The notes under the pieces: generated by a model
Told to the model about the DNA's origin: nothing
The model's input: the letters and a program-made list of their open reading frames with translations, nothing else
Database searches by the model: none
In this document: positions 3,163 to 51,298 of the stretch, piece by piece
Position numbering within the stretch: the first letter of the stretch is position 1
Layout: every line of letters begins with the position of its first letter
Program-made: the position numbers and the translations under genes
Assembly: GCA_964634945.1 (NCBI GenBank)
Contig: CAZWMG010000007.1
Span: 3,488-67,487, forward strand
Reading direction: 5' to 3'
Origin: an uncultured Planctomycetia bacterium
GTDB taxonomy: Bacteria > Omnitrophota > Gorgyraeia > JABMRG01
Length of the DNA: 64,000 nucleotides

Positions 3163-4601
3163 ACTCTTTTCTGCTCAAGCCTTTTCTTGATCGCGAGATT
3201 CGCAAGCTGCGGGTTTGCTTTTCCTTTACTCTTTTTCATGAGCTGGCCAACAAGGAAACCGAGAGCATTGGTCTTGCCGGATAGATAATCATCAGCCACT
3301 TTAGGATTTTCATTCACAACTTGTCCAGCAAGTTCACAAATAGCGCCTTCATCACTTATCTGGACTAGGCCTTTCTCTTTTATAATATCATCAGCTGAGT
3401 TTCCGGTTCTAAGCATATCAGAGAGCACTTCTTTCGCTATCTTGCCGCTTATTGCATTGCTATCTATCAGCTTCAACATCTCCGCAAGATGCTGCGGAGT
3501 TATTTTTGCGTCACAAAATTCAAGATTATCAGCGTTTAGATGCTTCTGGATATCGCCTGTGAGCCAATTAACTATCACCTTGGGCTTGGAATAGAGTTTC
3601 ACGCAAGACTCAAAAAAAACAGACATGCTCCTGTCTGAAACTAAAATAGAAGCGTCATATTCTGACAGGCCGCAATCTTTTATAAACCTCTCTTGTTTCT
3701 TTTTTGGCATCTCCGGCAAGGTCAAGCGAATCTCATCGACTAAGGCCGTATCAATAGCAAACAATAAGAGATCAGGATCGGGGAAATATCTATAATCATG
3801 CGCCTGCTCTTTTGTCCGCATAGGCTCTGAGGCCTGTTTCTGCTCATTCCAGAGCCTTGTCTGCTGGATAATGCTCTCTCCGGATAAGAGCGCTCTTGCC
3901 TGGCGCTTCTCTTCATATATCAGGGCATCTCTTACACCTTTAAAGCTATTCATATTTTTTAATTCAACCTTGGTGCCAAGTTCTTTCTGGCCTTTTGGCC
4001 TTATAGATACATTGGCGTCACAACGCAAAGACCCCTCTTCCATATTACAATCTGAAACATCAAGGTATTTGAGAATAGATTTAATAACGGTTAAATACTG
4101 ATATGCCTCCTCAGGAGAAGAAATATCAGGCTCGCTTACTATCTCTAAAAGAGGCGTACCTGTGCGATTAAAATCCACATAACTTGATGCTCTGCTCTTG
4201 CTATGTATAAGCTTTCCCGCGTCTTCTTCCATGTGGACGCGTGTTATGCCAATTCTTTTAAGCTTATCATTACACACAATATCAACAAAGCCACCTAAAG
4301 ATAAGGGCATATCATACTGTGATATCTGATAGTTCTTTGGCAAGTCAGGATAAAAATAGTTCTTTCTGTCAAACTTCATCCTGTCTGATATATTAGAACT
4401 TAACGCCAGAGCCACCTTTATAGCATGCCTTAGGTACCGGCTATTTAGCACCGGTAGAGAGCCTGGAAAGCCAAGGCATACAGGGCAGACGGATGTGTTA
4501 GGCTTACCACCAAAACTATTTTTACAACCACAGAAAGCCTTGGTTTTGGTTGAAAGCTGAAGATGTATCTCTAATCCTATTGTTGTAAGATATTGGCTCA
4601 T
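3159..4601 (-). CDS. gatB: Asp/Glu-tRNA amidotransferase subunit B
   Basis: MSQYLTTIGLEIHLQL...AFCGC N-terminus and a GatB/YqeY C-terminal tail. Overlaps the gatA stop by 4 nt. Confidence 0.9.
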   Translation of the reverse strand: MSQYLTTIGLEIHLQLSTKTKAFCGCKNSFGGKPNTSVCPVCLGFPGSLPVLNSRYLRHAIKVALALSSNISDRMKFDRKNYFYPDLPKNYQISQYDMPLSLGGFVDIVCNDKLKRIGITRVHMEEDAGKLIHSKSRASSYVDFNRTGTPLLEIVSEPDISSPEEAYQYLTVIKSILKYLDVSDCNMEEGSLRCDANVSIRPKGQKELGTKVELKNMNSFKGVRDALIYEEKRQARALLSGESIIQQTRLWNEQKQASEPMRTKEQAHDYRYFPDPDLLLFAIDTALVDEIRLTLPEMPKKKQERFIKDCGLSEYDASILVSDRSMSVFFESCVKLYSKPKVIVNWLTGDIQKHLNADNLEFCDAKITPQHLAEMLKLIDSNAISGKIAKEVLSDMLRTGNSADDIIKEKGLVQISDEGAICELAGQVVNENPKVADDYLSGKTNALGFLVGQLMKKSKGKANPQLANLAIKKRLEQKRV

Positions 4602-18949: not shown

Positions 18950-19483
18950 TCATTTTATTGCCAGTTTAGATATGAGCATGGAAGACCTTATGGCTACACC
19001 TTGCTGGCTACTCCTGGTATTGAGACTCAGCTTTTCAATCTTAAGCATCTGTCCGGAATTTTTAATGCGGTATATAAACTGCATAAGCGCATTCATGTCT
19101 GATTCAGTTTCTATCTCAACAGTAAACTTGCTATAATAATCCTTATGGCGTGGTGGCTTTGGCCTCATGCTTGTAATGCTAAGGCCTGAACCGCTGGCAG
19201 CCTTTTCGATCTCATCCAGTATAAGAGTTATGTCCTGCTCATCACTCCCTTTAGACTTAAGTTTTTTCTCATATTTTAGATACTCAGCATCTACCTTCTG
19301 CTTATCTTTTATAAGCGAGAGTGACTTTTTTAATTTTACCTTGACAATCTCTATTCTGCTATTGGCGCTGTGCCACCTCATAAAAAGTGGCTCTATTAAA
19401 AAATTATAACATAGCCCTATAATCGTAACTATGACTACGCTAACAAGTATCCTCTTTTCACGTTTTGACATTTTCTTCAGCAT
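18950..19483 (-). CDS. gspM: T2SS protein GspM (PilO-like)
   Basis: Short cytoplasmic N-terminus, a single TM helix (ILVSVVIVTIIGLCYNFLI), a periplasmic coiled coil plus ferredoxin-like domain, the right size (177 aa), and position right after gspL. Confidence 0.6.
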   Translation of the reverse strand: MLKKMSKREKRILVSVVIVTIIGLCYNFLIEPLFMRWHSANSRIEIVKVKLKKSLSLIKDKQKVDAEYLKYEKKLKSKGSDEQDITLILDEIEKAASGSGLSITSMRPKPPRHKDYYSKFTVEIETESDMNALMQFIYRIKNSGQMLKIEKLSLNTRSSQQGVAIRSSMLISKLAIK

Positions 19484-19529
19484 CTGTTATGGGTAGCCTT
19501 TCTGAGCATTAAAGACTGTTTTCGAATAC

Positions 19530-21011
19530 TTACTCTACAAAATTACAGCTTATTTGAAAGCCTACCATAGCAGACCCCCTTGTTCTTTTTTCAGCAACAG
19601 ATCGTGTCTGTACATTACTAAAACTCTCTGAGCTCTCAAGCAAAGTTACAAGCTTGAATACCTCTGAAATCTTTTGCGCTCTCCCGCGAAACCTGACCAC
19701 CTTGGATGTATCATCATAGTTAAAATCACTTAGATATATATTCCCCGGTATTATACTGTAAAGATTATATATAGCATTCAATGATGATGCTTCACCTGAA
19801 AGTTGCGCTTTTATGCTCCGTAACTTCTTAAATTTTGCCTCCGTCTGGTTAGCTGCCGATTCTACCTGAGAATACATCAATTTCAGTTCACTGAGAAGCG
19901 CTTCTCTCTGCCATATCTTTAAACCCACGAGTCCGAATAAAACTAAAAAAAGGATAGATAGCGCAACTGAAATATTTATAACTCTTTTGAAAGTAACGGT
20001 TGTGCTCTGTTTCTTCTTTTGCTTTTGAGAAATAAGATTAATGCCTTCCACAGCAAATGGCCCACCATATACTGTGCATATCGAGGCATCCTGTGGCACA
20101 CCTGCTTCTGTTATTGCCTCACCCTCAAAAGATGATTTTCTTAAGACATTTATTACTTTGCAAGGAGTGTTAATTCTGGTCGCAAAAAACTCCTTAAAGT
20201 CTTCAATGACAGAGCCGGCTCCGGTTATAACAAACTCTGATATATCCACCGCTGCCATAGCCTTCTCTTTAAAATGCGCGGCTATTGAGCGCTTTATCTC
20301 ATCTGCGAGTTTCTCCTTTGGCGAATTGCCTTTTTCCTTCTGCTTTGATATATCCAGTGCGCCTATAGAGATTGACCTGCTAAAATTAGGCCTTCCATCA
20401 GAAACTATTACTATCTCAGTGCTATTACTATCTATATCTATCAGACAGATGATCTTCCCCTGCTTTATCAACCCTTTTACTGTATTGAGCCACCCCATTA
20501 TAGCCTCTGAGCTCAATCTTATCTGCCTAAGCCTACTAACCAGGGCGCCTAATACGCGATTGATCCTCGCTATCTCATTCTTTGGAGAGATAACTAGCAT
20601 GACACTAGAATAACCTTCCTCGTCACTGCCCAACACTTCGTAATCTGATATAATCTCGTCTTCAGAGTATGGTGTCTGCTTCGCTGTCTCAAATGATACC
20701 ATCTTCTCTATCTCTGACCTATCTAGAGTAGGAAGGCGCATATACCTTACCATGGCCTTCTCCCTTGATATGATAGCGGTAACAGCTTCAGGCCTTATGC
20801 CTCTGCTGCTTACAGTATCATTCAATAACTTAGCTGTCTCTTCTTCAGATAGTCCGTATACAGATTCGACTAAAAGATTGGTTACGATAGGCCCCCTTGG
20901 GGTAATTTGTGATTCCAGGATTTTGAGATACTTGCTATCTACCTGTATATAGAGGTGCGGTCTTTTAGATATGATAAATGGGAAATTCAATTTTACTACT
21001 CCTGATACCAA
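19530..21011 (-). CDS. gspL: T2SS protein GspL: an actin-like cytoplasmic domain (PilM-like), a TM helix and a periplasmic PilN-like domain
   Basis: Actin-like ATPase-fold region (ICLIDIDSNSTEIVIVSDG ... ITGAGSVIEDF), TM segment VALSILFLVLFGLVGL, then a periplasmic domain. It sits between gspK and gspM. Confidence 0.65.
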   Translation of the reverse strand: MVSGVVKLNFPFIISKRPHLYIQVDSKYLKILESQITPRGPIVTNLLVESVYGLSEEETAKLLNDTVSSRGIRPEAVTAIISREKAMVRYMRLPTLDRSEIEKMVSFETAKQTPYSEDEIISDYEVLGSDEEGYSSVMLVISPKNEIARINRVLGALVSRLRQIRLSSEAIMGWLNTVKGLIKQGKIICLIDIDSNSTEIVIVSDGRPNFSRSISIGALDISKQKEKGNSPKEKLADEIKRSIAAHFKEKAMAAVDISEFVITGAGSVIEDFKEFFATRINTPCKVINVLRKSSFEGEAITEAGVPQDASICTVYGGPFAVEGINLISQKQKKKQSTTVTFKRVINISVALSILFLVLFGLVGLKIWQREALLSELKLMYSQVESAANQTEAKFKKLRSIKAQLSGEASSLNAIYNLYSIIPGNIYLSDFNYDDTSKVVRFRGRAQKISEVFKLVTLLESSESFSNVQTRSVAEKRTRGSAMVGFQISCNFVE

Positions 21012-22147
21012 TATTTGATTAAAGGCGGCTTATCCTTGTCCTTAAAACTGTATACCGCCTCCAATCTCATCTTTACCCTTTTTACCCGAGCTAACACTAT
21101 TGCGCGATATGTATCTGAAGTAACTCGAAACTGTGGGCTTAAACCTGAGATAAGGCCCCTTACCCTGCTATATTCATCAGTTGTTATACCATAGATATTA
21201 GCATACCATTGTCCATCTTGCAAATTCTTTATTTCAACAAGCCCTTCTTTTCCTCTATCTGTTATAGTTGAACCATAGGAAAACCAGGCATCATCACTTG
21301 TGCCGATAAGGTCATCCTCACCTCTCCTATAATCCATTATTTTTGACGCAAGATTAGTAAAATCCGGGCCAAAGAGAGCGCTTAGGACCGGTTCGCTAGC
21401 GCTATTGATATTTATTTTTCCGCTGCCAAAGACTGTGATATATGGCTTAATCATATTAAGAACTTTTGAGTCAACCCCCCTTACAAGCAGGAGCTCATAT
21501 ATTGTATTGAAATCTGAATCTTTACAATCGTATCGCTCCGGGAGGCCTTGGTAATACATATCCTCAGCACCATAGAGAAGCCTGTTCTCGGAAGACATGA
21601 CAAGATCATCTTTATCGCGCCAGTCCAATATCGCCCCGGCTATCTCTGCCGCATTATCCTCATCAATATTAAAATATACCAACAGATTATTTAGCGTCTC
21701 CTCAGTAACCATATTGAGATTAATCTTTGATTCTTCATCCATAAGGCCATATAACGTAACAGGCGCATCTTCACCCTGATCAAACAAGGGGTATTCATAA
21801 CTTACTGTATAGCTTCCATCTCCGAAAGGATGCCTGTCAAAAAGCGCCTTATTATTTGCCCATGGCTGGCTCAAGGCATCGATGCCTACTGAAAGGTTTT
21901 TTTTGTATTCAAGCTTTTTCTCTGATATTACACGTGTAATGCCAGCACGCGCTATGAAATAGGCCTTTATCTTGTCTATATCATAAGATGTAAGCTTAAG
22001 TGTAATAGCAGACTGTCTTCCTATGCTCACGGCAAATACGGCAAGTATGGCAACCATCCAAAGAGAGGCTATAAGTATTACACCTTTTTCGGTTTTAGGT
22101 TTTATGTTTTTGGTTGTCGTCTTATAATGCATAATCGCTCTTTTCAC
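20996..22147 (-). CDS. gspK: T2SS minor pseudopilin GspK
   Basis: N-terminus GVILIASLWMVAILAVFAVSIG is the GspK-type hydrophobic segment lacking the conserved Glu5. It is large (383 aa), has a KININSASEPVLSALFG HhH-like motif typical of GspK, and follows gspJ. Confidence 0.7.
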   Translation of the reverse strand: MKRAIMHYKTTTKNIKPKTEKGVILIASLWMVAILAVFAVSIGRQSAITLKLTSYDIDKIKAYFIARAGITRVISEKKLEYKKNLSVGIDALSQPWANNKALFDRHPFGDGSYTVSYEYPLFDQGEDAPVTLYGLMDEESKINLNMVTEETLNNLLVYFNIDEDNAAEIAGAILDWRDKDDLVMSSENRLLYGAEDMYYQGLPERYDCKDSDFNTIYELLLVRGVDSKVLNMIKPYITVFGSGKININSASEPVLSALFGPDFTNLASKIMDYRRGEDDLIGTSDDAWFSYGSTITDRGKEGLVEIKNLQDGQWYANIYGITTDEYSRVRGLISGLSPQFRVTSDTYRAIVLARVKRVKMRLEAVYSFKDKDKPPLIKYWYQE

Positions 22148-22149
22148 TA

Positions 22150-22860
22150 CTACGTTGCCGATACACTAACTTCTCCCGATAGAATATCCGTAAGCCTACC
22201 TGCTGGGATACAAATCTGTCTAGAGAATGTTTTCTGTCTACCATCTATAGATTCTGATACCGAAATATCTATCTTTACCCCAAGCGGTAATCCATTTCCT
22301 GTTTCCCATAGATCGATCCATTCATACTCCGCGGCAGTGGGCTCCTCATCAATATTTTGCGCTGTTTGATACAGATCGAGATATAAATAAGTACATTTAA
22401 AATCAGAGATGCCCTCAAGAATAACATTGCCTTCTTTTACGGGTATATCGAAAAGCCCTCCTTCAACATCATCATCTAACATAAAAAGTGAAGCAAGCGC
22501 ATCTTTTAAAGGCTCTACTTCTCTTATCAGGGCCTGGCCCTTATCATTACCTTTTAAATAATAACTTACACGCCCCACATTTATATCCGCGCTATCACTC
22601 TCAGTCAATGTAGTTACAAAAGAAACTTTATCATTATAGCCTTCAAAGGGTAAGTTGGATATATAGACCATATTCCTAACATCCCTTGTCAGCTTTAGAA
22701 AAACGTGCCTTACTCTCTGTTGAAATTCCGCTTCCTGCTCAATACGTCTGTAGGAGATAATGCCTCCTCGAAAACATGAGTATAATACAACAGCTATCAA
22801 AGAGAATATAACTACTGATACCAAAAGCTCAATTAATGTGAACGCCTTTTCTCTATTCAT
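22150..22860 (-). CDS. gspJ: T2SS minor pseudopilin GspJ
   Basis: Prepilin-type N-terminus KAFTLIELLVSVVIFSLIAVV, size 236 aa, and position between gspI and gspK. Confidence 0.55.
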   Translation of the reverse strand: MNREKAFTLIELLVSVVIFSLIAVVLYSCFRGGIISYRRIEQEAEFQQRVRHVFLKLTRDVRNMVYISNLPFEGYNDKVSFVTTLTESDSADINVGRVSYYLKGNDKGQALIREVEPLKDALASLFMLDDDVEGGLFDIPVKEGNVILEGISDFKCTYLYLDLYQTAQNIDEEPTAAEYEWIDLWETGNGLPLGVKIDISVSESIDGRQKTFSRQICIPAGRLTDILSGEVSVSAT

Positions 22861-23285
22861 TCTTCCTCATCTTCATTAGGAATCGGCACATAAGTCAATA
22901 TATCTATCTTTCTTTCAAAGCCTCTCGCCTGCCAAGACAGCGAAGCGGCGAATCGTTCTATTTCAAGGTCTTCCTGATCATATTCTTCACCTTTATCATC
23001 ACTTGTAAGAGGGGATGTTTGGCTTCTTAGCTGGAAACCCTCATCCATAAAAACCGCGTTCTCCTCTAAGAAAGGTGGGGCGCCTTCTTCTGAATCAAGA
23101 AGAAGCTCAAGGCCAAAGGCCCTGTTCTTTAATATGAGAATAGCCTCACGATAACCATTAGATAATGAGACCGCTTTCAGTGATGAGGTAAACGCGTGGT
23201 TAATAAAAACAATAGAAACAGCGACTATAACAACTGTTATCAGAACCTCGATCAGCAAGAATGCCTTATTCTTCAATATAATCAT
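22857..23285 (-). CDS. gspI: T2SS minor pseudopilin GspI
   Basis: Prepilin-type N-terminus KAFLLIEVLITVVIVAVSIV, 142 aa, between gspH and gspJ. Confidence 0.55.
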   Translation of the reverse strand: MIILKNKAFLLIEVLITVVIVAVSIVFINHAFTSSLKAVSLSNGYREAILILKNRAFGLELLLDSEEGAPPFLEENAVFMDEGFQLRSQTSPLTSDDKGEEYDQEDLEIERFAASLSWQARGFERKIDILTYVPIPNEDEEE

Positions 23286-23844
23286 AAACTTTTATCAGGC
23301 CTGTGCCTGCTTCTATCGAAATTACGATGGTTTTGTTCTCTTTGCCAACAAGGTATATCTTAGTGAAATCCGTATCACCATCAGGCGAAAAGTCTACTAC
23401 GCTATTACCTGTCTTAATTTCTATGCCACTGGGCATCCTAAAAGATCTGCCCCAGCGCTCCTTCAGCGGCTTAAAAGTTTTATTTTCTTCATCTTTTACA
23501 AAAACCCTATAAAAGCAATTTTGAGCATCTATAACAAGCCTGTAATCTCTCCTTTCAAATACCGCTCTTTCAAGACAAAATTTTGCCGTATACGCGATGT
23601 TTTTAGCAGAGGTTGTAAGTTTAAGATCCTCATAGGTTCTTCTGAAGATGGGGGTAGATAAAGCTACAAGGGCAAGAATAATTGCGGCAACCAGCATCAG
23701 CTCCAGTAGAGTAAAGGCATAATTGGATCTCGAATCTTTGGTTTCCGGTATGCGATGCTTAACTTTAGATAGACACCGAAAGCCTAACATCAAACGCCTC
23801 CTCAATAGACTACTCTTTAATAACTTCCCAGTTGACAATATCAT
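23266..23844 (-). CDS. gspH: T2SS minor pseudopilin GspH
   Basis: Prepilin motif YAFTLLELMLVAAIILALVA, 192 aa (the true start may be a later Met), directly after gspG. Confidence 0.55.
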   Translation of the reverse strand: MILSTGKLLKSSLLRRRLMLGFRCLSKVKHRIPETKDSRSNYAFTLLELMLVAAIILALVALSTPIFRRTYEDLKLTTSAKNIAYTAKFCLERAVFERRDYRLVIDAQNCFYRVFVKDEENKTFKPLKERWGRSFRMPSGIEIKTGNSVVDFSPDGDTDFTKIYLVGKENKTIVISIEAGTGLIKVYDYIEE

Positions 23845-24238
23845 CTGAGCTCTCTATCCCATCTGCTCCATATGAAAATAGATCGTAGTCGTGAAGATTA
23901 TGCGTTCCTGGAGATATATAGTTATAAGGATTGCCCCAAGGGTCTTTAGGGGTCTTTTTTATATATGGGCCTTTCCAATTAGGGGGGCTGGGCGGGGAGG
24001 GGGGCATTTTTCTCAAAGCCACAAGCCCCTGCTCAGTTGAAGGATATATTCCATTATCAAGCTCGTAAAGATCCAATGCTGTAGCAAGGTGCGCCTCTAT
24101 CTGGGCCTGTGCTGCCGCAAAACGCGCCTCCTGCGATCTACCAACAAGGCGTGGCACAACCAACGCGACAAGCACACTTATAATAATCACAACAAGCATA
24201 AGTTCTATTAAAGTAAAACCACTTTTTTTCATCTTCAT
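23810..24238 (-). CDS. gspG: T2SS major pseudopilin GspG
   Basis: MKMKKSGFTLIELMLVVIIISVLVALVVP is the canonical GspG N-terminus (G|F cleavage site, Glu+5). It has a GspG-type C-terminal domain carrying a PPSPPSPP insertion. SD AAGGAG is 6 nt upstream. Confidence 0.85.
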   Translation of the reverse strand: MKMKKSGFTLIELMLVVIIISVLVALVVPRLVGRSQEARFAAAQAQIEAHLATALDLYELDNGIYPSTEQGLVALRKMPPSPPSPPNWKGPYIKKTPKDPWGNPYNYISPGTHNLHDYDLFSYGADGIESSDDIVNWEVIKE

Positions 24239-31439: not shown

Positions 31440-31516
31440 TGGCGCGCCTGACAGGATTTGAACCTGTGACACCCAGTTCCGGAAACTGGTGCTCTATCCA
31501 GCTGAGCTACAGGCGC
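31440..31516 (-). tRNA. tRNA-Arg (anticodon CCG) with an encoded CCA end
   Basis: Cloverleaf read by hand: GCGCCUG-UA-GCUC-AGCUGGAUA-GAGC-A-CCAGU-UUCCGGA-ACUGG-GUGUC-ACAGG-UUCAAAU-CCUGU-CAGGCGC-G-CCA. Confidence 0.85.
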
Positions 31517-31626: not shown

Positions 31627-32043
31627 TTAATAGGGTTCCATATAGGTCTCTATAAAAACTCTTATATAATTTTGCATCTTTTCTTTTTGCTTAGAGTCAC
31701 TCTTTGCTATGTCAACTGCAAAGCGATATAATGTCTTTACATCGACTTTTATCCATTTTTTATTTCTAGCAAGAAAGACTAAGAGCGTCGTTACCGCTAC
31801 TCTTTTATTACCATTTTGAAATGGGTGATTTTTTATCATAAGATAAAATAAGATTGCAGCCTTATCGCTAATCTGAGAATATAATTCTGCTTTATCAAAT
31901 GTTTGAAAAGGAACGGCTAAACAGCTTTCTAAAATGTTAGGATAACGTGTGCTAAAATCCGGTATTGGTTCATCAAAACCTAATCTCTCCTGCGCAAGTG
32001 AGTAAGCTATATACTGAACCTCTGCTAATGAGAGCTTTTCCAC
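31627..32043 (-). CDS. doc: Doc-family toxin (Fic/Doc fold)
   Basis: NHPFQNGNKRVAVT matches the Doc/Fic HxFx(D/N)GNKR motif. 138 aa. It overlaps the upstream antitoxin gene by 1 nt. Confidence 0.8.
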   Translation of the reverse strand: MEKLSLAEVQYIAYSLAQERLGFDEPIPDFSTRYPNILESCLAVPFQTFDKAELYSQISDKAAILFYLMIKNHPFQNGNKRVAVTTLLVFLARNKKWIKVDVKTLYRFAVDIAKSDSKQKEKMQNYIRVFIETYMEPY

Positions 32044-45277: not shown

Positions 45278-48094
45278 CTACATCACCTTTTTAAGATAAC
45301 GTCCTGTATAGGAAGCCTTATTTCTGGAAATTTCAAAAGGAGAACCACAAGCAACGATATTTCCACCTTTTTCACCGCCCTCTGGGCCCAAATCCACAAT
45401 ATAATCCGCGGATTTAATAACATCAAGATTATGCTCTATAACCAATACGGTATTGCCTTGCGCAACCAATTTGTTCAAGACCGATAATAGCTTGCTCACA
45501 TCAGCAAAGTGTAGGCCGGTTGTAGGTTCATCAAGAATATATAAGGTTCTACCTGTCGCTAACTTAGAAAGCTCTGTTGCTAATTTTATCCTTTGCGCTT
45601 CACCACCGGAGAGCGTTGTAGCGGCCTGGCCCAGTTCAATGTAGCCTAAACCGACCTCAGAGAGAGTCTTTAATTTTTTGTATATTGAGGGAATATTAGC
45701 AAAAAGCTCTATCGCGTCATCTACCGCCATTTCAAGTACATCGGATATGGACTTGCCCTTGTATTTTACCTCTAGAGTCTGCTGATTGAAACGCTTGCCT
45801 TGGCATGCCTGACACCTTATATAAACATCCGGAAGAAAGTGCATCTCTATCTTCTTCACACCATCGCCATCACATATTTCGCACCTGCCGCCCTTAACAT
45901 TAAAACTAAACCTGCCGGCCCTATACCCCCTTATCTTCGATTCGGGCAACTTGCTAAATAGATCTCTTATATGGCTAAAGGCACCTGTATAAGTAGTGGG
46001 ATTGGAACGTGGTGTACGTCCTATGGGTGACTGGTCCACAACTATTACCTTATCTATATGCTCACTACCCAATATCGCTTTATGCTTGCCCGGAGCTTGA
46101 GTTGAATTATAAAATTTCCTCGCGAGGGCCCTATAGAGTATCTCATCTACCAATGTGGATTTACCCGAACCGGAAACACCTGTCACGCAACTAAAGGTGC
46201 CCAAAGGCAGAGATATGTCAATCCCCTTTAGGTTATGTTCACTTGCCTCCTTGATGATAAGCTTTTTTTTATTTTTATAATCTCTATAATTTCCGGATGG
46301 GGCCACTACTAAACTGGAGTTTAAATACCTTGCTGTTAAGGAAGCCTTATTTTTAAGAAGCCCTTTTAACTTACCGCTATAGATAAGCTCCCCGCCTTTC
46401 TTGCCGGCACCCGGGCCTAAATCCACAATATAATCCGCGTTCCTGATCATGACCTCATCATGCTCTACAACAATGATAGTATTTCCTAAATCCCGCAAAG
46501 TTTTAAGCGTAGAGAGAAGTTTGGAATTATCTCTCTGATGAAGGCCTATGCTCGGTTCGTCCAACACATAGAGAACTCCAACCAGTCCGGCGCCTATCTG
46601 AGTAGCCAGCCTGATGCGCTGCGCTTCGCCGCCTGAAAGAGTAGAGCTTACACGATCAAGAGTTAAATAACCTAAACCTACATTCAACAAAAATTTCAGC
46701 CTGCTCTTAAGCTCTTTCATTATCTGTTTTGCGATCTGCTCACTTTTAGCGTTAAGTTTTAAGTGTTTAAAAAACTCAAAAGCCTGATTTATAGAGAGGC
46801 TGGATATATCAGCGATATTCCTATCTGTAATCTTTACTGCAAGAGATTCATCCTTAAGCCGCTTGCCCTTACACTTAAAACACGGGCGTACAGACATATA
46901 GGTATGAATAAAGTCGCGCATATATTCACTCTCAGTCTCTTTAAAACGACGCTCTAAATTTGGTATGACCCCCTCAAAGTATCTTTCCTCCCCCTTGCCT
47001 TCCCGGCTGCCATAGAGAATAACTTCTCGTATTTTTTTACCCAAATCCTTAAACGGCTTTTCAGCACTAAAATCGTAATCATACGCAAGCCCGTTAAGAA
47101 GCCTGTAATAATACAATAGTAATGATTTTCCGCCTTTTCTCCATGGTTCTATAGCGCCTTCTTTAATGGATTTTGATTTATCCGGCACAACAAGATCCGG
47201 ATCTATCTCCATATTATGTCCTAATCCATTACAAGCGGGACATGCGCCATATGGAGAGTTAAAAGAAAATGCCCTGGGCTCTAGTGTCTCATAATTTATT
47301 CCGCAATCCAGGCATGCGCTTTGAGAACTATAGAGTGTTTCGGTTTTTGGTTTTTGCTTTTGGGTTTGCGCGGAAGATTGTATCGCAACTATCATTAGGC
47401 CGCTTCCAATTTCTAAAGCGGTTTCAACAGAATCAGCAAGGCGTTTTTGAACTCCGGGCTTTATTATCAACCTATCAACAACAACCTCTATATTATGCTT
47501 TGAGTTCTTATTAAGATTTATTTCTTCAGAAAGGTCGGATATTTTTCCATCTACCCTGCACCGCACAAAACCATTTTTCTTCATATTACTAAAAAGATCT
47601 TTGTATTCACCTTTTTTTCCGCGAACAATCGGGGCTAAGATCATAATAGGCGCATGCATAGGATAACGAATTATCGCATCGATAATCTGTTGTGAAGACT
47701 GATGCGTTATGAGTCTAGAACACTTATAACAGTATATGTCTCCGATTCTGGAAAAAAGTAGCCTTAAATAATCATGGATCTCAGTAACAGTCGCAACTGT
47801 GGAACGGGGATTCGAACCGGCCCTCCTTTGCTGGATCGCTATGCTTGGAGAAAGGCCTTCTATATTATCGACATCCGGTTTCTGCATCTGTTCTAAAAAT
47901 TGACGCGCATAAGCGGAAAGGCTTTCAACGTATTTGCGTTGTCCTTCAGCATATACAGTATCAAACGCAAGTGAACTTTTTCCTGAACCTGACAAACCTG
48001 TAATTACAGTAAGTTCATTGCGCGGAAGTTTTAAACTTATTGACTTCAGGTTATGTTCTTTAGCGCCCTTTATCGTAATGTAGCTATTTTTCAT
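45278..48094 (-). CDS. uvrA: Excinuclease ABC subunit A
   Basis: Two ABC ATPase modules (GLSGSGKSSLAFDT and GVSGSGKSTLV), zinc-finger cysteines, 938 aa. Confidence 0.95.
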   Translation of the reverse strand: MKNSYITIKGAKEHNLKSISLKLPRNELTVITGLSGSGKSSLAFDTVYAEGQRKYVESLSAYARQFLEQMQKPDVDNIEGLSPSIAIQQRRAGSNPRSTVATVTEIHDYLRLLFSRIGDIYCYKCSRLITHQSSQQIIDAIIRYPMHAPIMILAPIVRGKKGEYKDLFSNMKKNGFVRCRVDGKISDLSEEINLNKNSKHNIEVVVDRLIIKPGVQKRLADSVETALEIGSGLMIVAIQSSAQTQKQKPKTETLYSSQSACLDCGINYETLEPRAFSFNSPYGACPACNGLGHNMEIDPDLVVPDKSKSIKEGAIEPWRKGGKSLLLYYYRLLNGLAYDYDFSAEKPFKDLGKKIREVILYGSREGKGEERYFEGVIPNLERRFKETESEYMRDFIHTYMSVRPCFKCKGKRLKDESLAVKITDRNIADISSLSINQAFEFFKHLKLNAKSEQIAKQIMKELKSRLKFLLNVGLGYLTLDRVSSTLSGGEAQRIRLATQIGAGLVGVLYVLDEPSIGLHQRDNSKLLSTLKTLRDLGNTIIVVEHDEVMIRNADYIVDLGPGAGKKGGELIYSGKLKGLLKNKASLTARYLNSSLVVAPSGNYRDYKNKKKLIIKEASEHNLKGIDISLPLGTFSCVTGVSGSGKSTLVDEILYRALARKFYNSTQAPGKHKAILGSEHIDKVIVVDQSPIGRTPRSNPTTYTGAFSHIRDLFSKLPESKIRGYRAGRFSFNVKGGRCEICDGDGVKKIEMHFLPDVYIRCQACQGKRFNQQTLEVKYKGKSISDVLEMAVDDAIELFANIPSIYKKLKTLSEVGLGYIELGQAATTLSGGEAQRIKLATELSKLATGRTLYILDEPTTGLHFADVSKLLSVLNKLVAQGNTVLVIEHNLDVIKSADYIVDLGPEGGEKGGNIVACGSPFEISRNKASYTGRYLKKVM

Positions 48095-48194
48095 CTCTTC
48101 TCACATAACAGGAAACCCCTTCTCGCAATAAGCCGTTTAAAGCATTCTGCTAAAAGGGGTTCTCTGTTTCAAATTAATTACTATCTATTAAAAT

Positions 48195-48299
48195 TTATTT
48201 CTTCTTCTTCTTTTTAGCCTTTTTCTTTGCTACCTTTTTCTTTGCTACCTTTTTCTTTGCTACCTTTTTCTTTTTCTTTGCCTTTTTCTTTGCTGCCAT
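48195..48299 (-). CDS. Very small lysine-rich peptide, 34 aa: MAAKKKAKKKKKVAKKKVAKKKVAKKKAKKKKKK
   Basis: ATG at 48299 with a GGAGGGG SD 6 nt upstream. It is a (KKKVA)n histone-H1-like tail-only protein, too short for the ORF track. Confidence 0.45.
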   Translation of the reverse strand: MAAKKKAKKKKKVAKKKVAKKKVAKKKAKKKKKK

Positions 48300-48343
48300 G
48301 TTTCCCCTCCTTTTTTAGTAAAGAATTTAATCTTTACACGCTA

Positions 48344-48691
48344 CTATCTCTTCTTCTTTGCCTTCTTCTTCGCAACCTTCTTCTTTGCCTTCTTCTTCGC
48401 AACCTTCTTCTTTGCCTTCTTCTTGGCTACTTTCTTCTTAGCAACTTTCTTCTTGGCTACTTTCTTCTTCTTGCCGCGAGCCATCTTTGCCATTGAAACG
48501 TCGCCCTGCTTATCTATGAAATAGAGATACCCCTTTTCCCTTACGATACCGGATTTCACAACTACCTTAGGGCCACCGCCTTTCTTCTTACCACGAGCCA
48601 TCTTTGCCATTGAAACATTACCTTTTTTATCCAAATAATAAAGATAGCCTTTTTCTCTCTTAATTTTGCATTTCAAAACTTTTGTTGCCAT
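48344..48691 (-). CDS. Lysine-rich basic protein with two tandem copies of an uncharacterised domain of about 35 aa, followed by a KKKVA-repeat histone-H1-like tail
   Basis: Domain 1 is KCKIKREKGYLYYLDKKGNVSMAKMARGKKKGG. Domain 2 is KSGIVREKGYLYFIDKQGDVSMAKMARGKKKK. The tail is VAKKKVAKKKVAKKKAKKKVAKKK... A GGAGGTG SD lies upstream. Confidence 0.6.
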   Translation of the reverse strand: MATKVLKCKIKREKGYLYYLDKKGNVSMAKMARGKKKGGGPKVVVKSGIVREKGYLYFIDKQGDVSMAKMARGKKKKVAKKKVAKKKVAKKKAKKKVAKKKAKKKVAKKKAKKKR

Positions 48692-48978
48692 ATTATATTT
48701 TTCACCTCCCTTCCAAAATATTTTTATTAATTTTATTTTACGCTCTTTTTAAAGGGTGCGCAAGAACTTTTTGCTTTTTTTTTGAAAAAAATTAATTTTT
48801 TTTAGAATACGATTAAAGGATTTAAGGCTCCTTACGGGACCATAAAGTGTTCGCGTAAAAAAGATAAACAAGCGAATGGCTCTAGATTGCCGGGAAATTT
48901 TAGAATACAGGATTTAAAAACTATGCAACAGTGGGGAATTATATAGAAAATTAATTACGCCTTGGAAAAGATTAAAAA

Positions 48979-49794
48979 TTATGTACCGATCTTTACACAA
49001 TCATCAAGGTGCTGTTTTAAGGTAGCTACCGCGGAAAGCGGCGCTAGAAAACTTGTCTTTGGATTCTGTGGAGATGGGACATTCTCAGTGCGCGCAATAA
49101 GCCTGCCAAAATCTCCTTCAGCCTCAACCTCATGTGAGTTAACAGTGTATTTGGGAGATGTAACAACCTTGACTATTGTTCTCTGTGCGCCTATACCGGC
49201 TACGCTTAAAAGTGCGGAGACATTGATATTCTTAGGAAAGGCCTTGACCGCTTCCTGCGCAGTGCCTTCGAATATAATATAATCATCAGTTATAGCGTCT
49301 AGGTCTATCTTGTTAGCGATTATATGGGGGGCGCCCCTCAATCCCTTCGGAGGTTTTCGCGTGGTAAGAGTAACTTTTTTTATATCGCCTGTGCCGGCGG
49401 ACTTTATGCCATCTAATCCGCATATAGCTCCGCTAGGAAGAATGATCTTCGCTTTATTTTTTCTTGCGATTTTAAACAGGTCTTCACTTCTCTCTAAGAG
49501 CCCTCCTATGCTCATTACTAAAACATCTTTTTTATTCAACAGGGCCTGTTTAGCCAGATCAAAAGAAAAGCTGCCGGAGGCCGCCTCAACTACAATATCT
49601 GATTTATCGATAAGACTGCTAAGCGAGACTACCGGAGGATTGCCGGAAAGAGAGGCACAAAGATCCTGAGCTCGGGCATTGTCTGTATCACAAAGCGCTA
49701 CGATAGCTGCTAGTGCCTTTAGTTCTTTATCCAGCGTTTTCGCGATAAAGCTGCCTATAGTGCCGCAACCTACTATACCTACTTTTTTTGTCAT
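48979..49794 (-). CDS. nadX: L-aspartate dehydrogenase NadX
   Basis: KVGIVGCGTIGSFIAKTL is a Rossmann N-terminus, with a DUF108/NadX C-terminal domain. It is adjacent to nadA. Confidence 0.75.
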   Translation of the reverse strand: MTKKVGIVGCGTIGSFIAKTLDKELKALAAIVALCDTDNARAQDLCASLSGNPPVVSLSSLIDKSDIVVEAASGSFSFDLAKQALLNKKDVLVMSIGGLLERSEDLFKIARKNKAKIILPSGAICGLDGIKSAGTGDIKKVTLTTRKPPKGLRGAPHIIANKIDLDAITDDYIIFEGTAQEAVKAFPKNINVSALLSVAGIGAQRTIVKVVTSPKYTVNSHEVEAEGDFGRLIARTENVPSPQNPKTSFLAPLSAVATLKQHLDDCVKIGT

Positions 49795-49819
49795 GATTCT
49801 CTCATTAGTGTTCTTGTAA

Positions 49820-49964
49820 GGGGATACCCCTACGATTGAGTTTTTACTGTTTTTAGTTTTTTTTGATAACCATATCTTGCTTTATGCAAATACATTAAAG
49901 ATGTATTTTTTGTAAAATTTTATCAATTTCCGTGAGTAGGGGTGTCCCCTTTAGGACCGTCCCC
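49820..49964. repeat. MITE-like intergenic element, copy C: left arm GGGGATACCCCT, right arm AGGGGTGTCCCCTTTAGGACCGTCCCC
   Basis: Shares the arms with copies A and B, and the internal strings CTACGATTGAGTTTTTACTGTTTTT and ATTTCCGTG with copy A. It lies between the nadA stop and the nadX start. Confidence 0.7.
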
Positions 49965-49970
49965 TTCATA

Positions 49971-50948
49971 TTAAGTACCTGATATAGATACCCACTTTTT
50001 TTCACCGGATATCGCGAGCATCCTCTCTACTGATTTATACGCACGCGCCCTTATATCCTCAGGAACCGATATCTTACCAACCATAAGCTCTAAGGAGTTT
50101 ACTATCCATCCAAGAGTAGTGAGTTTCATGCTTGCGCACAAGAGGTGATCCGTAGGAAGAAAGAACCTCTTATCGGGATTATCCTGTCTCAACCTATAAA
50201 GCATGCCCATTTCTGTTCCAATAATAAAATCTCTTTTGCTAGAAGTCTTTATATATTCAAGCATCCCTCCTGTTGATGTGACCTTATCCGCAAGATCAAG
50301 TATATCCGGGTTGCATTCAGGATGAGCTATAAACTCCGCTCCGGGATAGAGGCTCTTCGCAGCTATTATCTGGTCAGGTAAAACTCTAATATGTGTGGGG
50401 CAGAAACCCTCCCATAATATTATCTCCTTATCAGGCAGCTGTGATTGTACGTAATACCCAAGATTTTTATCGGGAATAAATATTACTTTTTTTTCCTTAA
50501 GGGAGGCGACAACCTCAACAGCATTACGTGAGGTGCAGCATATATCGCTCTCTGCTTTTATTGCCGCGGATGTATTGACATAGCAAACAACCGGTACGCC
50601 GGGATATTCCTGCTTCTTCTTTCTTAATGCCTCAGGCGTAATCATATCTGCCATAGGGCATCCTGCCTCTTTTACAGGGAGCAAAACAGTCTTTTTGGGA
50701 TTCAATATATAAGCGGTCTCTGCCATAAAGTGAACTCCGCAGAATACAATAACGTCCGCCTCTATCTTAATGGCTGCCTTGCTCAATCCCAATGAATCAC
50801 CCGTAATATCCGCTATCTCCTGGACTTCATCTCTCTGATAATTATGGACAATAATAACGGCGTTGCGTTTTTTTCTAAGCTCAGCGATGCGGTTCTTAAG
50901 CTTTTCTATGTATTTCTTGTTAGTCGCTTCCGTATACTCTTCTATCAT
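49971..50948 (-). CDS. nadA: Quinolinate synthase NadA
   Basis: 325 aa with the three conserved NadA Cys-containing segments (e.g. HPECNPDI). Confidence 0.9.
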   Translation of the reverse strand: MIEEYTEATNKKYIEKLKNRIAELRKKRNAVIIVHNYQRDEVQEIADITGDSLGLSKAAIKIEADVIVFCGVHFMAETAYILNPKKTVLLPVKEAGCPMADMITPEALRKKKQEYPGVPVVCYVNTSAAIKAESDICCTSRNAVEVVASLKEKKVIFIPDKNLGYYVQSQLPDKEIILWEGFCPTHIRVLPDQIIAAKSLYPGAEFIAHPECNPDILDLADKVTSTGGMLEYIKTSSKRDFIIGTEMGMLYRLRQDNPDKRFFLPTDHLLCASMKLTTLGWIVNSLELMVGKISVPEDIRARAYKSVERMLAISGEKKWVSISGT

Positions 50949-51298
50949 AATTTCTTTACCCCGTTTTTATCGTTAAGAAATACTCTTTTCGCGTTAAAGG
51001 TTGATGCCTCTTTTGATTCAACCAAACAATACGAAATTATTATGACCCTGTCGCCTTTTTGCGCGCATCTTGCGGCACCACCATTTAAACAAATATCTCC
51101 CTTACCGGATTCTCCTTCTATAACATAGGTCTCAAACCTAGCGCCATTATTAAGATTCACGATCTGGACCTTCTCTCCGGGAAATATATCAGAAACTTTT
51201 AGCAGCTCTGAATCAATAGTGATGCTCCCTGTGTAGTCCAAATTGGCATCCGTTACTGTGGCATTATGAATCTTTGATTTGTAAATTATTCTTAACAT
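50945..51298 (-). CDS. panD: Aspartate 1-decarboxylase PanD
   Basis: MLRIIYKSKIHNATVTDANLDYTGSITID is the canonical PanD N-terminus including the G-S self-cleavage site. Confidence 0.9.
   Translation of the reverse strand: MLRIIYKSKIHNATVTDANLDYTGSITIDSELLKVSDIFPGEKVQIVNLNNGARFETYVIEGESGKGDICLNGGAARCAQKGDRVIIISYCLVESKEASTFNAKRVFLNDKNGVKKL

Follow-up and report, generated by a model that had tools for sequence, protein, structure and literature searches.

Analysis of a 64,000-nt stretch of contig CAZWMG010000007.1 (hereafter the window, meaning the whole stretch of DNA analysed) showed two extremely lysine-rich open reading frames (ORFs) on its minus strand, one encoding a 115-aa protein (48344..48691) and the other a 34-aa peptide (48195..48299; MAAKKKAKKKKKVAKKKVAKKKVAKKKAKKKKKK). 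Both ORFs had been proposed in an earlier note made from the letters of this DNA, and both were recovered at the same positions and were conserved in relatives. The core of the larger protein is apparently a new, unannotated domain underlying small basic, putatively architectural proteins with Lys-rich tails. Both genes are real and under purifying selection. Our preferred reading, held with moderate confidence, is a new nucleoid-associated protein that binds DNA and bears an H1-like tail, with a protamine-like peptide expressed alongside it. That DNA is the ligand, that the protein is abundant and that it compacts DNA are inferences. The coding features are as follows.

48344..48691 (including stop), minus strand: main gene, 115-aa basic protein with two modules and a Lys-rich tail (ORF list; homologues; ratio of nonsynonymous to synonymous substitution rates, dN/dS; AlphaFold2 predicted local distance difference test, pLDDT, of 91)
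48584..48691, minus strand: module 1, residues 1-36, with predicted strands at 3-6, 16-20 and 26-30 (AlphaFold2; consensus of 119 modules)
48473..48574, minus strand: module 2, residues 40-73, with predicted strands at 41-45, 55-59 and 65-69 (AlphaFold2; 117-nt repeat)
48347..48472, minus strand: Lys-rich tail, residues 74-115, of (KKKVA)/(KKKAKKKVA) repeats (Tandem Repeats Finder, TRF; AlphaFold2 helix)
48195..48299 (including stop), minus strand: tiny gene, 34-aa Lys/Ala peptide (five lineages, same MAAKKKAKK start)

The full protein consists of 43% K+R with a net charge of about +43, and the core of 73 residues alone has an isoelectric point of 10.2 and a net charge of about +14.5. An internal duplication with a 117-nt period (39 aa), 1.8 copies and 76% matches was detected with TRF. 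The earlier note had described two tandem copies of about 33 aa; the duplication stands and, since the period is 117 nt, the repeat unit is 39 aa with its linker and not 33 aa. AlphaFold2 modelled the full-length protein with a pLDDT of 91.1 and the 74-aa core with a pLDDT of 91.7 and a predicted template modelling score of 0.75, and residues 1-73 were predicted to be all-beta with two three-stranded units, one per module. A total of 119 diverse modules gave the consensus pEKVaKtGIkRE.G[YFW]LY[FY][ILV]DK.G[DN][VI]sRakMaRGGkK, in which one Tyr was invariant, at a position where the extraction motif itself admitted only Y, F or C, and one Gly was nearly so. Between the window and its close relatives the dN/dS of the core was 0.02-0.09 with dS from 0.2 to >2.

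Scans of the main protein against Pfam (E ≤ 10) and NCBIfam showed nothing significant, the NCBIfam matches being of low complexity and far below the cut-off, and no ribosomal-protein model was matched in either database. The two-module core had no significant match in PHROGs, and no PDB sequence was matched significantly by phmmer or by alignment profiles of the module pair or of the single module. Foldseek returned no match for the core model in PDB and BFVD. Cold-shock, OB-fold and other known small beta nucleic-acid binders gave no significant profile match in Pfam, NCBIfam, PHROGs or PDB. The domain had been put forward as an unrecognised one, and the profile searches agree with this, as no curated family, ribosomal model, cold-shock model or solved structure was matched. 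Kinship with beta-propellers (YWTD, DUF5050) was limited to a motif of ~10 residues, G-x-LY-[WF]-x-D, with E values of about 0.02-0.3 and was treated as motif convergence; the top hits in the PDB searches were YWTD propeller blades at E of about 0.2, over 10 residues. A degenerate zinc ribbon was also rejected, Cys being sporadic at the single positions 8, 28, 47 and 67, where relatives have V, A, M, R or K.

With residues 1-73 as query, 1,889 proteins were found at E ≤ 0.01; those with names were all "hypothetical protein" from Omnitrophota metagenome-assembled genomes (MAGs), and none had a Pfam domain. The number of relatives together with dN/dS puts the main gene far beyond chance. A profile search of 1.84 billion representatives gave 1,169 clusters (50% identity) at E ≤ 0.001 and 398 at E ≤ 1e-10, and a scan of one genome per GTDB species showed that at least 565 species carry the family. 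According to the record titles, the carriers included Omnitrophota, Marinimicrobia/Fidelibacterota, Elusimicrobiota, Bdellovibrionota, Dependentiae, Nitrospirae and the DPANN groups Woesearchaeota/Nanoarchaeota. The contig L060, titled "Woesearchaeota", has genes for deoxyhypusine synthase and for an IdsA prenyl synthase of archaeal type, which is consistent with a truly archaeal origin. Archaeal and bacterial cores were 63-79% identical without gaps. Overall, the family is huge, cross-domain and never annotated; no prior description of it was found in the full-text literature, motif strings included, with most subscription journals outside coverage. In addition, MAGs titled 'uncultured Planctomycetia/Planctomycetales' (L010, L022, L027, L032, L035, L038, L049, L054, L065, L069 and L082) were observed to have near-identical proteins and the Omnitrophota-type gene order of aspartate dehydrogenase (AspDH), the main gene and uvrA. 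These labels may be unreliable, possibly along with 'Methanosarcinales', 'Halanaerobiales' and 'Clostridia'.

Typical members are 74-85 aa long with two modules and a basic stub of 2-10 residues, and the module pair was the standard unit (104 of 149 representatives). In P0172 the module pair forms the C-terminus of a ParB_N + HTH_ParB protein in place of its usual C-terminus. The modules of P0229 are also C-terminal and follow a region that resembled the middle region of P0172 by eye, with no Pfam match. Module pairs that are membrane-tethered by transmembrane segments or linked to OmpA were found in P0162, P0187, P0191 and P0204. Longer arrays were also observed: P0121 (886 aa) has predicted hydrophobic, transmembrane-like segments followed by seven or more modules, in P0122 (354 aa) four modules or more are recognisable (by eye about six), with acidic spacers between them, and P0179 has zinc ribbons and modules in alternation together with GAF and prokaryotic RING finger domains. 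P0147 was also listed among the multi-module relatives. Viruses held divergent copies in 5 of 2.9 million IMG/VR contigs, one of which adjoins a ParB_N-DNA methylase gene, and viral origin or carriage was rejected given this rarity.

Within Omnitrophota the order AspDH-gene-uvrA was maintained: 45 loci have AspDH upstream of the gene, 43 have uvrA in the vicinity, and of the 41 copies of uvrA that could be placed 38 lie downstream. Outside Omnitrophota the neighbours were unrelated housekeeping genes that changed between phyla. The gene is therefore a stand-alone one, and an operon-based function was rejected because the synteny is confined to Omnitrophota.

The long tail is a lineage-specific addition of this clade and a few others, with the core as the conserved entity. 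AlphaFold2 predicted the tail as one long helix (residues 74-114). A (KKKVA)n tail of 45 aa had been claimed; its Lys-rich nature was upheld, its length was corrected to 42 aa, and it is not a family feature given the 74-85 aa of typical members. Tail length was 42 aa in the window, 19 aa in L004 (core 96% identical), 25 aa in L005 and >36 aa in L009, where the contig ends inside the repeat. H1-like Lys/Ala/Pro tails recurred, by independent addition, in many family members (P0143, P0144, P0164, P0165, P0221, P0233, P0240, P0268, L049, L058, L069 and L071), and Thr was also among the residues of the tails of independent lineages. The best period of the tail DNA was 27 nt (4.3 copies, 92% matches), with only 78% matches at 15 nt; the tiny ORF had a 15-nt period with 4.9 copies and 86% matches. 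The near-perfect 15-nt repeat described before is thus partly right, 15 nt being the period of the tiny ORF. Tail Lys codons were AAG in 25 of 28 cases (89%) compared to 52% in the genes of the window, where the per-gene maximum was 71%, and the tiny ORF alternates AAG and AAA. This preference keeps long A-runs away, as would be expected if slippery poly-A is avoided. In L009 (4001-4329), which is 92% identical and the nearest GTDB representative to the window, the contig was observed to end inside the Lys-rich repeat, and P0013 has an aberrant C-terminus past its Lys-rich repeat, which suggests assembly breaks or frameshifts at the array.

The 34-aa peptide has a net charge of about +22.5. 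The tiny ORF was present in five lineages (window, L004, L005-L008, L011 and L094) with lengths of 34, 31, 20, 19 and 19 aa, respectively, and all five copies have the MAAKKKAKK start, an AAGGAGG Shine-Dalgarno (SD) sequence and a Lys-rich end. Comparison of L005 with L011 showed 7 synonymous and 0 nonsynonymous differences with one in-frame whole-codon indel. Between L011 and L094 the peptide is identical, the two ORFs differing at 7 synonymous and 0 nonsynonymous sites. Tail and peptide differ in length by whole repeats among relatives, and the variation in array length that had been anticipated was borne out by both series of lengths. The view that the separate ORF is the tail alone was not upheld. 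In 476 of 500 synonymous-codon permutations the alignment scored at least as high as that of the window DNA, and the idea that the tiny ORF recently arose by duplication of the tail or undergoes gene conversion with it was rejected at the DNA level; the likeness at peptide level stays, and the DNA similarity is no more than the shared peptide demands. Similar mini-ORFs also occurred in many genomes away from any two-repeat gene.

A metagenome scan for the nine-codon start produced at least 120 loci (L096-L215), where fewer than about one was expected by our own estimate from pattern degeneracy and an assumed ~10^12-base collection. Among the 120 loci listed there were 86 complete ORFs of 11-47 aa (median 20) that encode 60 distinct peptides with 60% Lys and 29% Ala, and locus GC content varied from 31% to 72%. 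An SD-like sequence was found in 69 of the 86 and a hairpin with a T-run within 160 nt downstream in 59 of 80, and none of the 86 had a two-module gene within 700 nt upstream. Groups of mini-ORFs with a common peptide showed synonymous differences only. L096 (4290-4340, minus strand) is a complete stand-alone unit with a TTGACA-17-TAATCT promoter, leader, SD, 16 codons and terminator. Nine listed loci sit upstream of secA, and the closest relatives of the SecA of L126 were from Patescibacteria; at L209 a 5S and a partial 23S rRNA gene lie about 1.3 kb away on the same strand. No known RNA family was found by Rfam at the window locus or at the mini-ORFs. The 13 exact sequences searched (20-115 aa: both window proteins and 11 mini-peptides, 12 of them tiny) were absent from a collection of 15 billion proteins.

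The remaining 34 of the 120 listed matches had the MAAKKKAKK stretch in other settings. It was an N-terminal extension of HU (PF00216) in L125, L133, L137, L202 and L207 and of SWIB-domain proteins (PF02201) in L180 and L192, and it was carried by a phosphofructokinase in three loci. Further listed matches were proteins of 95-144 aa that are H1-like throughout, some of them with (KKKVA)n as their unit. These settings place the window peptide at the short end of a continuum of Lys/Ala low complexity, several members of which are attached to established nucleoid proteins. The tiny ORF is a genuine gene and belongs with a wider, unannotated class of mini-ORFs.

On this evidence the locus would encode polycationic nucleic-acid-coating proteins, most likely with a role in nucleoid (chromatin) architecture. 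The 8-kDa core, predicted to be a pseudo-dimer of two three-stranded beta modules, would bind DNA independently of sequence in the manner of Sul7d/Cren7, with a fold that is probably unrelated. The 42-residue (KKKVA)n tail would neutralise phosphate charge and condense or bridge DNA, and the 34-residue Lys/Ala peptide, from the same mRNA, may serve as a free protamine-like counter-ion. Lys-rich tails of H1, of chlamydial Hc1/Hc2 and of mycobacterial and Deinococcus HU condense DNA. The nucleoid-associated reading is supported by the strong constraint on both genes, by the extreme basicity of core, full protein and peptide, by the recurrent and independent addition of H1-like tails, and by the ParB fusion of P0172, the likeness of P0229 to it and the ParB_N-DNA methylase neighbour in a virus. 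It is further supported because HU and SWIB proteins bear the Lys/Ala stretch of the tiny peptide and because the gene stands alone amid changing housekeeping neighbours, as is typical of HU-type genes. Taken together, charge, architectures and context speak for a ubiquitous cytoplasmic polyanion as the ligand, the simplest candidate being DNA. The suggestion that this is a nucleoid-compaction protein therefore stays the best functional guess, with a chance of about one half.

Several points weigh against this reading. The ParB fusion was confirmed as a single architecture in the 150 representatives inspected, and OmpA, transmembrane segments, GAF and zinc ribbons as partners are uninformative on DNA. 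HNH, PD-(D/E)xK and HTH (helix-turn-helix) partners suspected by eye in P0258, P0205 and P0189 were not confirmed by Pfam, with sub-threshold HTH-like matches in P0189 and P0234 only. Phosphofructokinase (PF00365; L132, L153 and L179) is an odd partner, with a Lys-rich (KKKVA-like) N-terminal extension of 55-75 residues. The taxonomic spread rests on the titles of MAG records, and archaeal hallmark genes were checked in one contig, L060. Finally, extreme basicity fits binding of RNA or of the ribosome equally well.

This last point leads to the strongest alternative, to which we assign roughly a one-in-five chance and which the earlier note had also named: that the products are RNA- or ribosome-associated, the main protein as a lineage-specific small ribosomal protein or ribosome-bound factor and the tiny peptide as a filler of rRNA pockets like bTHX, bS22, bL37 and eL41. 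Both products are small, extremely basic and under strong purifying selection, with signals compatible with high output, and the tiny ORF of L209 lies close to rRNA genes. There is precedent for this, as annotation has more than once overlooked very small ribosomal proteins rich in Lys/Arg, which only cryo-EM revealed. However, the gene was in no ribosomal-protein operon among the loci examined, no ribosomal model of Pfam or NCBIfam was matched, and the multi-module, membrane-tethered, OmpA-linked and ParB-linked forms are unlike a ribosomal protein. The phyletic distribution is patchy, and the 63-79% cross-domain identity is above the typical level of universal ribosomal proteins; transfer would account for such identity more readily if the protein is a generic polyanion binder than if it is fitted to one ribosome. 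A low-complexity peptide that varies from 11 to 47 aa also argues against a defined rRNA pocket.

Somewhat less probable still is that the module pair binds something else in the cell, be it a polyanion (polyphosphate or anionic membrane lipids, for example) or a conserved protein, with tail and peptide acting as charge buffers, that is, encoded substitutes for polyamines. The membrane-tethered and OmpA-linked members (P0162, P0187, P0191, P0204), the Lys/Ala extension on a metabolic enzyme and the largely small-celled carrier lineages of the record titles would suit it. However, nothing specific for any such ligand was found, the ParB, HU and SWIB associations point to DNA, and a module with invariant aromatic and Met positions is more suggestive of a specific surface for binding than of charge alone.

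The signals around the two genes also agree with the nucleoid-associated reading of a co-expressed pair and are listed below.

48767..48803, minus strand: A/T-rich tract, UP-element-like, directly 5' of the -35 box (read from the sequence; putative function)
48758..48763, minus strand: -35-like hexamer TTGCGC (CTTGC(G/A)C invariant in six lineages)
48735..48740, minus strand: -10-like hexamer TAAAAT, 17 nt past the -35 box (GTAAAAT invariant in six aligned lineages)
48703..48710, minus strand: SD sequence GGGAGGTG of the main gene (block identical to GGGAGGTG in 4 of 6 lineages)
48341..48346, minus strand: tandem stops TAG TAG of the main gene (read from the sequence)
48304..48310, minus strand: SD sequence GGAGGGG of the tiny ORF (AAGGAGG kept in window, L004, L005, L011 and L094)
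48107..48168, minus strand: long stem-loop 3' of the tiny ORF, candidate terminator of the two-gene unit (RNA fold)

The promoter hexamers were kept across six lineages despite near-saturated synonymous sites, and an equivalent A/T tract was found in the window, L004, L005, L011 and L009. TTGCGC was missing from the list of the consensus scanner because only three of its six positions agree with TTGACA. A long AT-rich promoter region at 48700-48980 had been described; a conserved promoter is indeed present, and it is compact (48735-48803). The intergenic region 5' of the main gene (48692-48978) was 287 nt in the window compared to about 36-107 nt in L001 and L003, and beyond the promoter this region of the window had no Rfam match and only spurious short ORFs. 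The strong SD sequences proposed for both ORFs were confirmed as GGGAGGTG and GGAGGGG, the block of the main gene deviating in L009 and L011 (GAGGAGGTG; GGGGGG). As a separate observation, the contig of L006 (1-41) starts 3 nt past the conserved -10 box and 41 nt 5' of the ATG, near the predicted transcription start; should the sample be a metatranscriptome, this start would carry information.

The spacer from the main ORF to the tiny ORF is 44 nt and was unalignable among lineages apart from the SD. A hairpin in this spacer as a conserved processing element was rejected: the folds were weak (-6.8, -9.2 and -3.5 kcal/mol, with z-scores of -1.5, -2.6 and -0.1), and L011 has none. The stem-loop at 48107..48168 had a folding energy of -28.8 kcal/mol (z = -4.5), and 0 of 200 shuffles were equally stable. 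L005 has a counterpart hairpin with a T-run, and in L001 and L003, which do not have the tiny ORF, a hairpin lies directly 3' of the main gene. Such relatives have the terminator directly after the main gene, which places the tiny ORF inside the transcription unit; by this layout the two genes form one transcription unit and are co-transcribed. Promoter, SDs, tandem stops and the strong terminator hairpin are compatible with strong expression.

The same layout bears on the weakest alternative, namely that the 34-aa ORF is no peptide gene but a Lys-codon leader or attenuator for the terminator and uvrA, or an RNA A-R-N tract (e.g., an Hfq-type site). The tiny ORF does lie between the gene and a strong hairpin preceding uvrA, and AAA/AAG are A-R-N triplets, so that change at third positions only is expected under an RNA-motif model too; this alternative is nevertheless highly improbable, given that no alternative (anti-terminator) pairing was found and the intercistronic hairpin is weak and unconserved, that genomes lacking the tiny ORF keep the terminator directly after the main gene, that other mini-ORFs stand alone, L096 for instance between a promoter and a terminator of its own, and are followed by no constant gene, that ATG, well-spaced SD and stop are conserved (SD-like in 69 of 86 listed), and that Ala, Val, Thr and Pro codons, which are not A-R-N, also change synonymously only.

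The pair is flanked in the window by uvrA (45278..48094) downstream and by aspartate dehydrogenase, nadA and panD upstream. The upstream synteny in Omnitrophota was dapF-dapA-dapB-aminotransferase-folK-panC(-nadA)-nadX (L001, 1-5900; L003, 1-5964), and the window has panD-nadA-nadX (48979-51298). A conserved TGTTAT(G/A/T)(T/A)(G/T) motif was observed at 48095-48106, just 3' of the terminator hairpin; the start of uvrA follows it at about 7-15 nt. L005 (about 3490-3505) has the counterpart TGTTATAAT, and both L011 and L094 have TGTTATTAT. The motif is a possible -10 box for a leaderless or very short-leader uvrA mRNA. Elsewhere in the window, a tRNA gene (31443-31516) adjoins a Fic/DOC-family gene (31627-32043), and a gene cluster for type II secretion (T2SS) or a pilus, with PilO/T2SS-M and a T2SS-G pseudopilin, was located at 18950-24238.

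A wider form of the nucleoid-associated reading is put forward tentatively and is the less probable of the two. Here the core would be a principal packager of DNA in its carriers and the founder of a major chromatin family of new fold that crosses domains (Omnitrophota, DPANN, Dependentiae, Marinimicrobia, Elusimicrobiota and Bdellovibrionota per titles) and spread by gene transfer, and the mini-ORFs would be widespread protamine- or polyamine-like counter-ions of 11-47 aa, including those of Patescibacteria. The short list of prokaryotic chromatin proteins comprises HU, histones, Alba, Sul7d/Cren7 and MC1. If the core is DNA-architectural, it would add a new fold to this list, in almost entirely uncultured lineages of unknown chromatin, and its 63-79% identity between archaea and bacteria would be an unusually clear transfer of a chromatin component between domains. 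Since the family has at least 1,169 clusters with no Pfam/NCBIfam model and no solved structure, thousands of entries now called "hypothetical protein" would gain an annotation from one study of its biochemistry or structure. The Lys/Ala mini-ORFs, which lie below the thresholds of gene callers and yet have SDs, terminators and synonymous-only divergence, provide a testable example of small-protein dark matter.

Among known systems, the best functional analogue may be the Sul7d (Sso7d/Sac7d) and Cren7 proteins of Crenarchaeota, which are small all-beta chromatin proteins of about 7-8 kDa, monomeric and very basic (PMC5906684). The core is similar in size, basicity, predicted beta-sheet structure and stand-alone gene. 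However, it is modelled as an internally duplicated three-stranded unit and would differ from their SH3-like barrel, which derives from a zinc ribbon; its Cys positions are unconserved, and the family occurs in Omnitrophota, DPANN and other phyla and not in Crenarchaeota. Homology was rejected at an hhalign probability of 0.1-0.2% for the family alignment against manually entered Sso7d and Cren7 sequences, and neither protein was among the Foldseek PDB matches.

For HU/IHF (PF00216), the likeness is that of a small, basic, stand-alone and widespread gene with variable basic extensions and a presumed architectural role; the core is predicted to be all-beta in contrast to the alpha/beta HU fold. 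The Bac_DNA_binding model PF00216 had no match here, and the same model readily finds HU in L133 and L202.

Tail and peptide resemble the H1 C-terminal domain, Hc1/Hc2, Pseudomonas AlgP and the HU extensions of mycobacteria and Deinococcus in their low complexity of Lys/Ala(/Val/Thr/Pro) and in their repeat-driven length variation. The structured part differs, being an unrelated beta module by prediction, and the window peptide is far shorter than any H1-like protein described. Linker_histone (PF00538) was not matched at E ≤ 10, and there is no winged helix, residues 1-73 being all-beta in the AlphaFold2 model; neither protein matched the Hc1 or HC2 Pfam models at E ≤ 10. A Lys/Ala/Pro-rich C-terminal tail of H1 type is present at residues 74-115 as a compositional resemblance only. 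The resemblance to H1 and Hc1/Hc2 that had been noted therefore holds for composition and does not extend to their domains.

The mini-peptides may finally be likened, by description and with no homology claimed, to protamines, eL41, bTHX, bS22 and bL37. They differ from these in being Lys/Ala and not Arg-rich and in their highly variable length, and they share with them a size of 11-47 residues, an almost wholly basic composition and the ease with which they are missed by gene callers.

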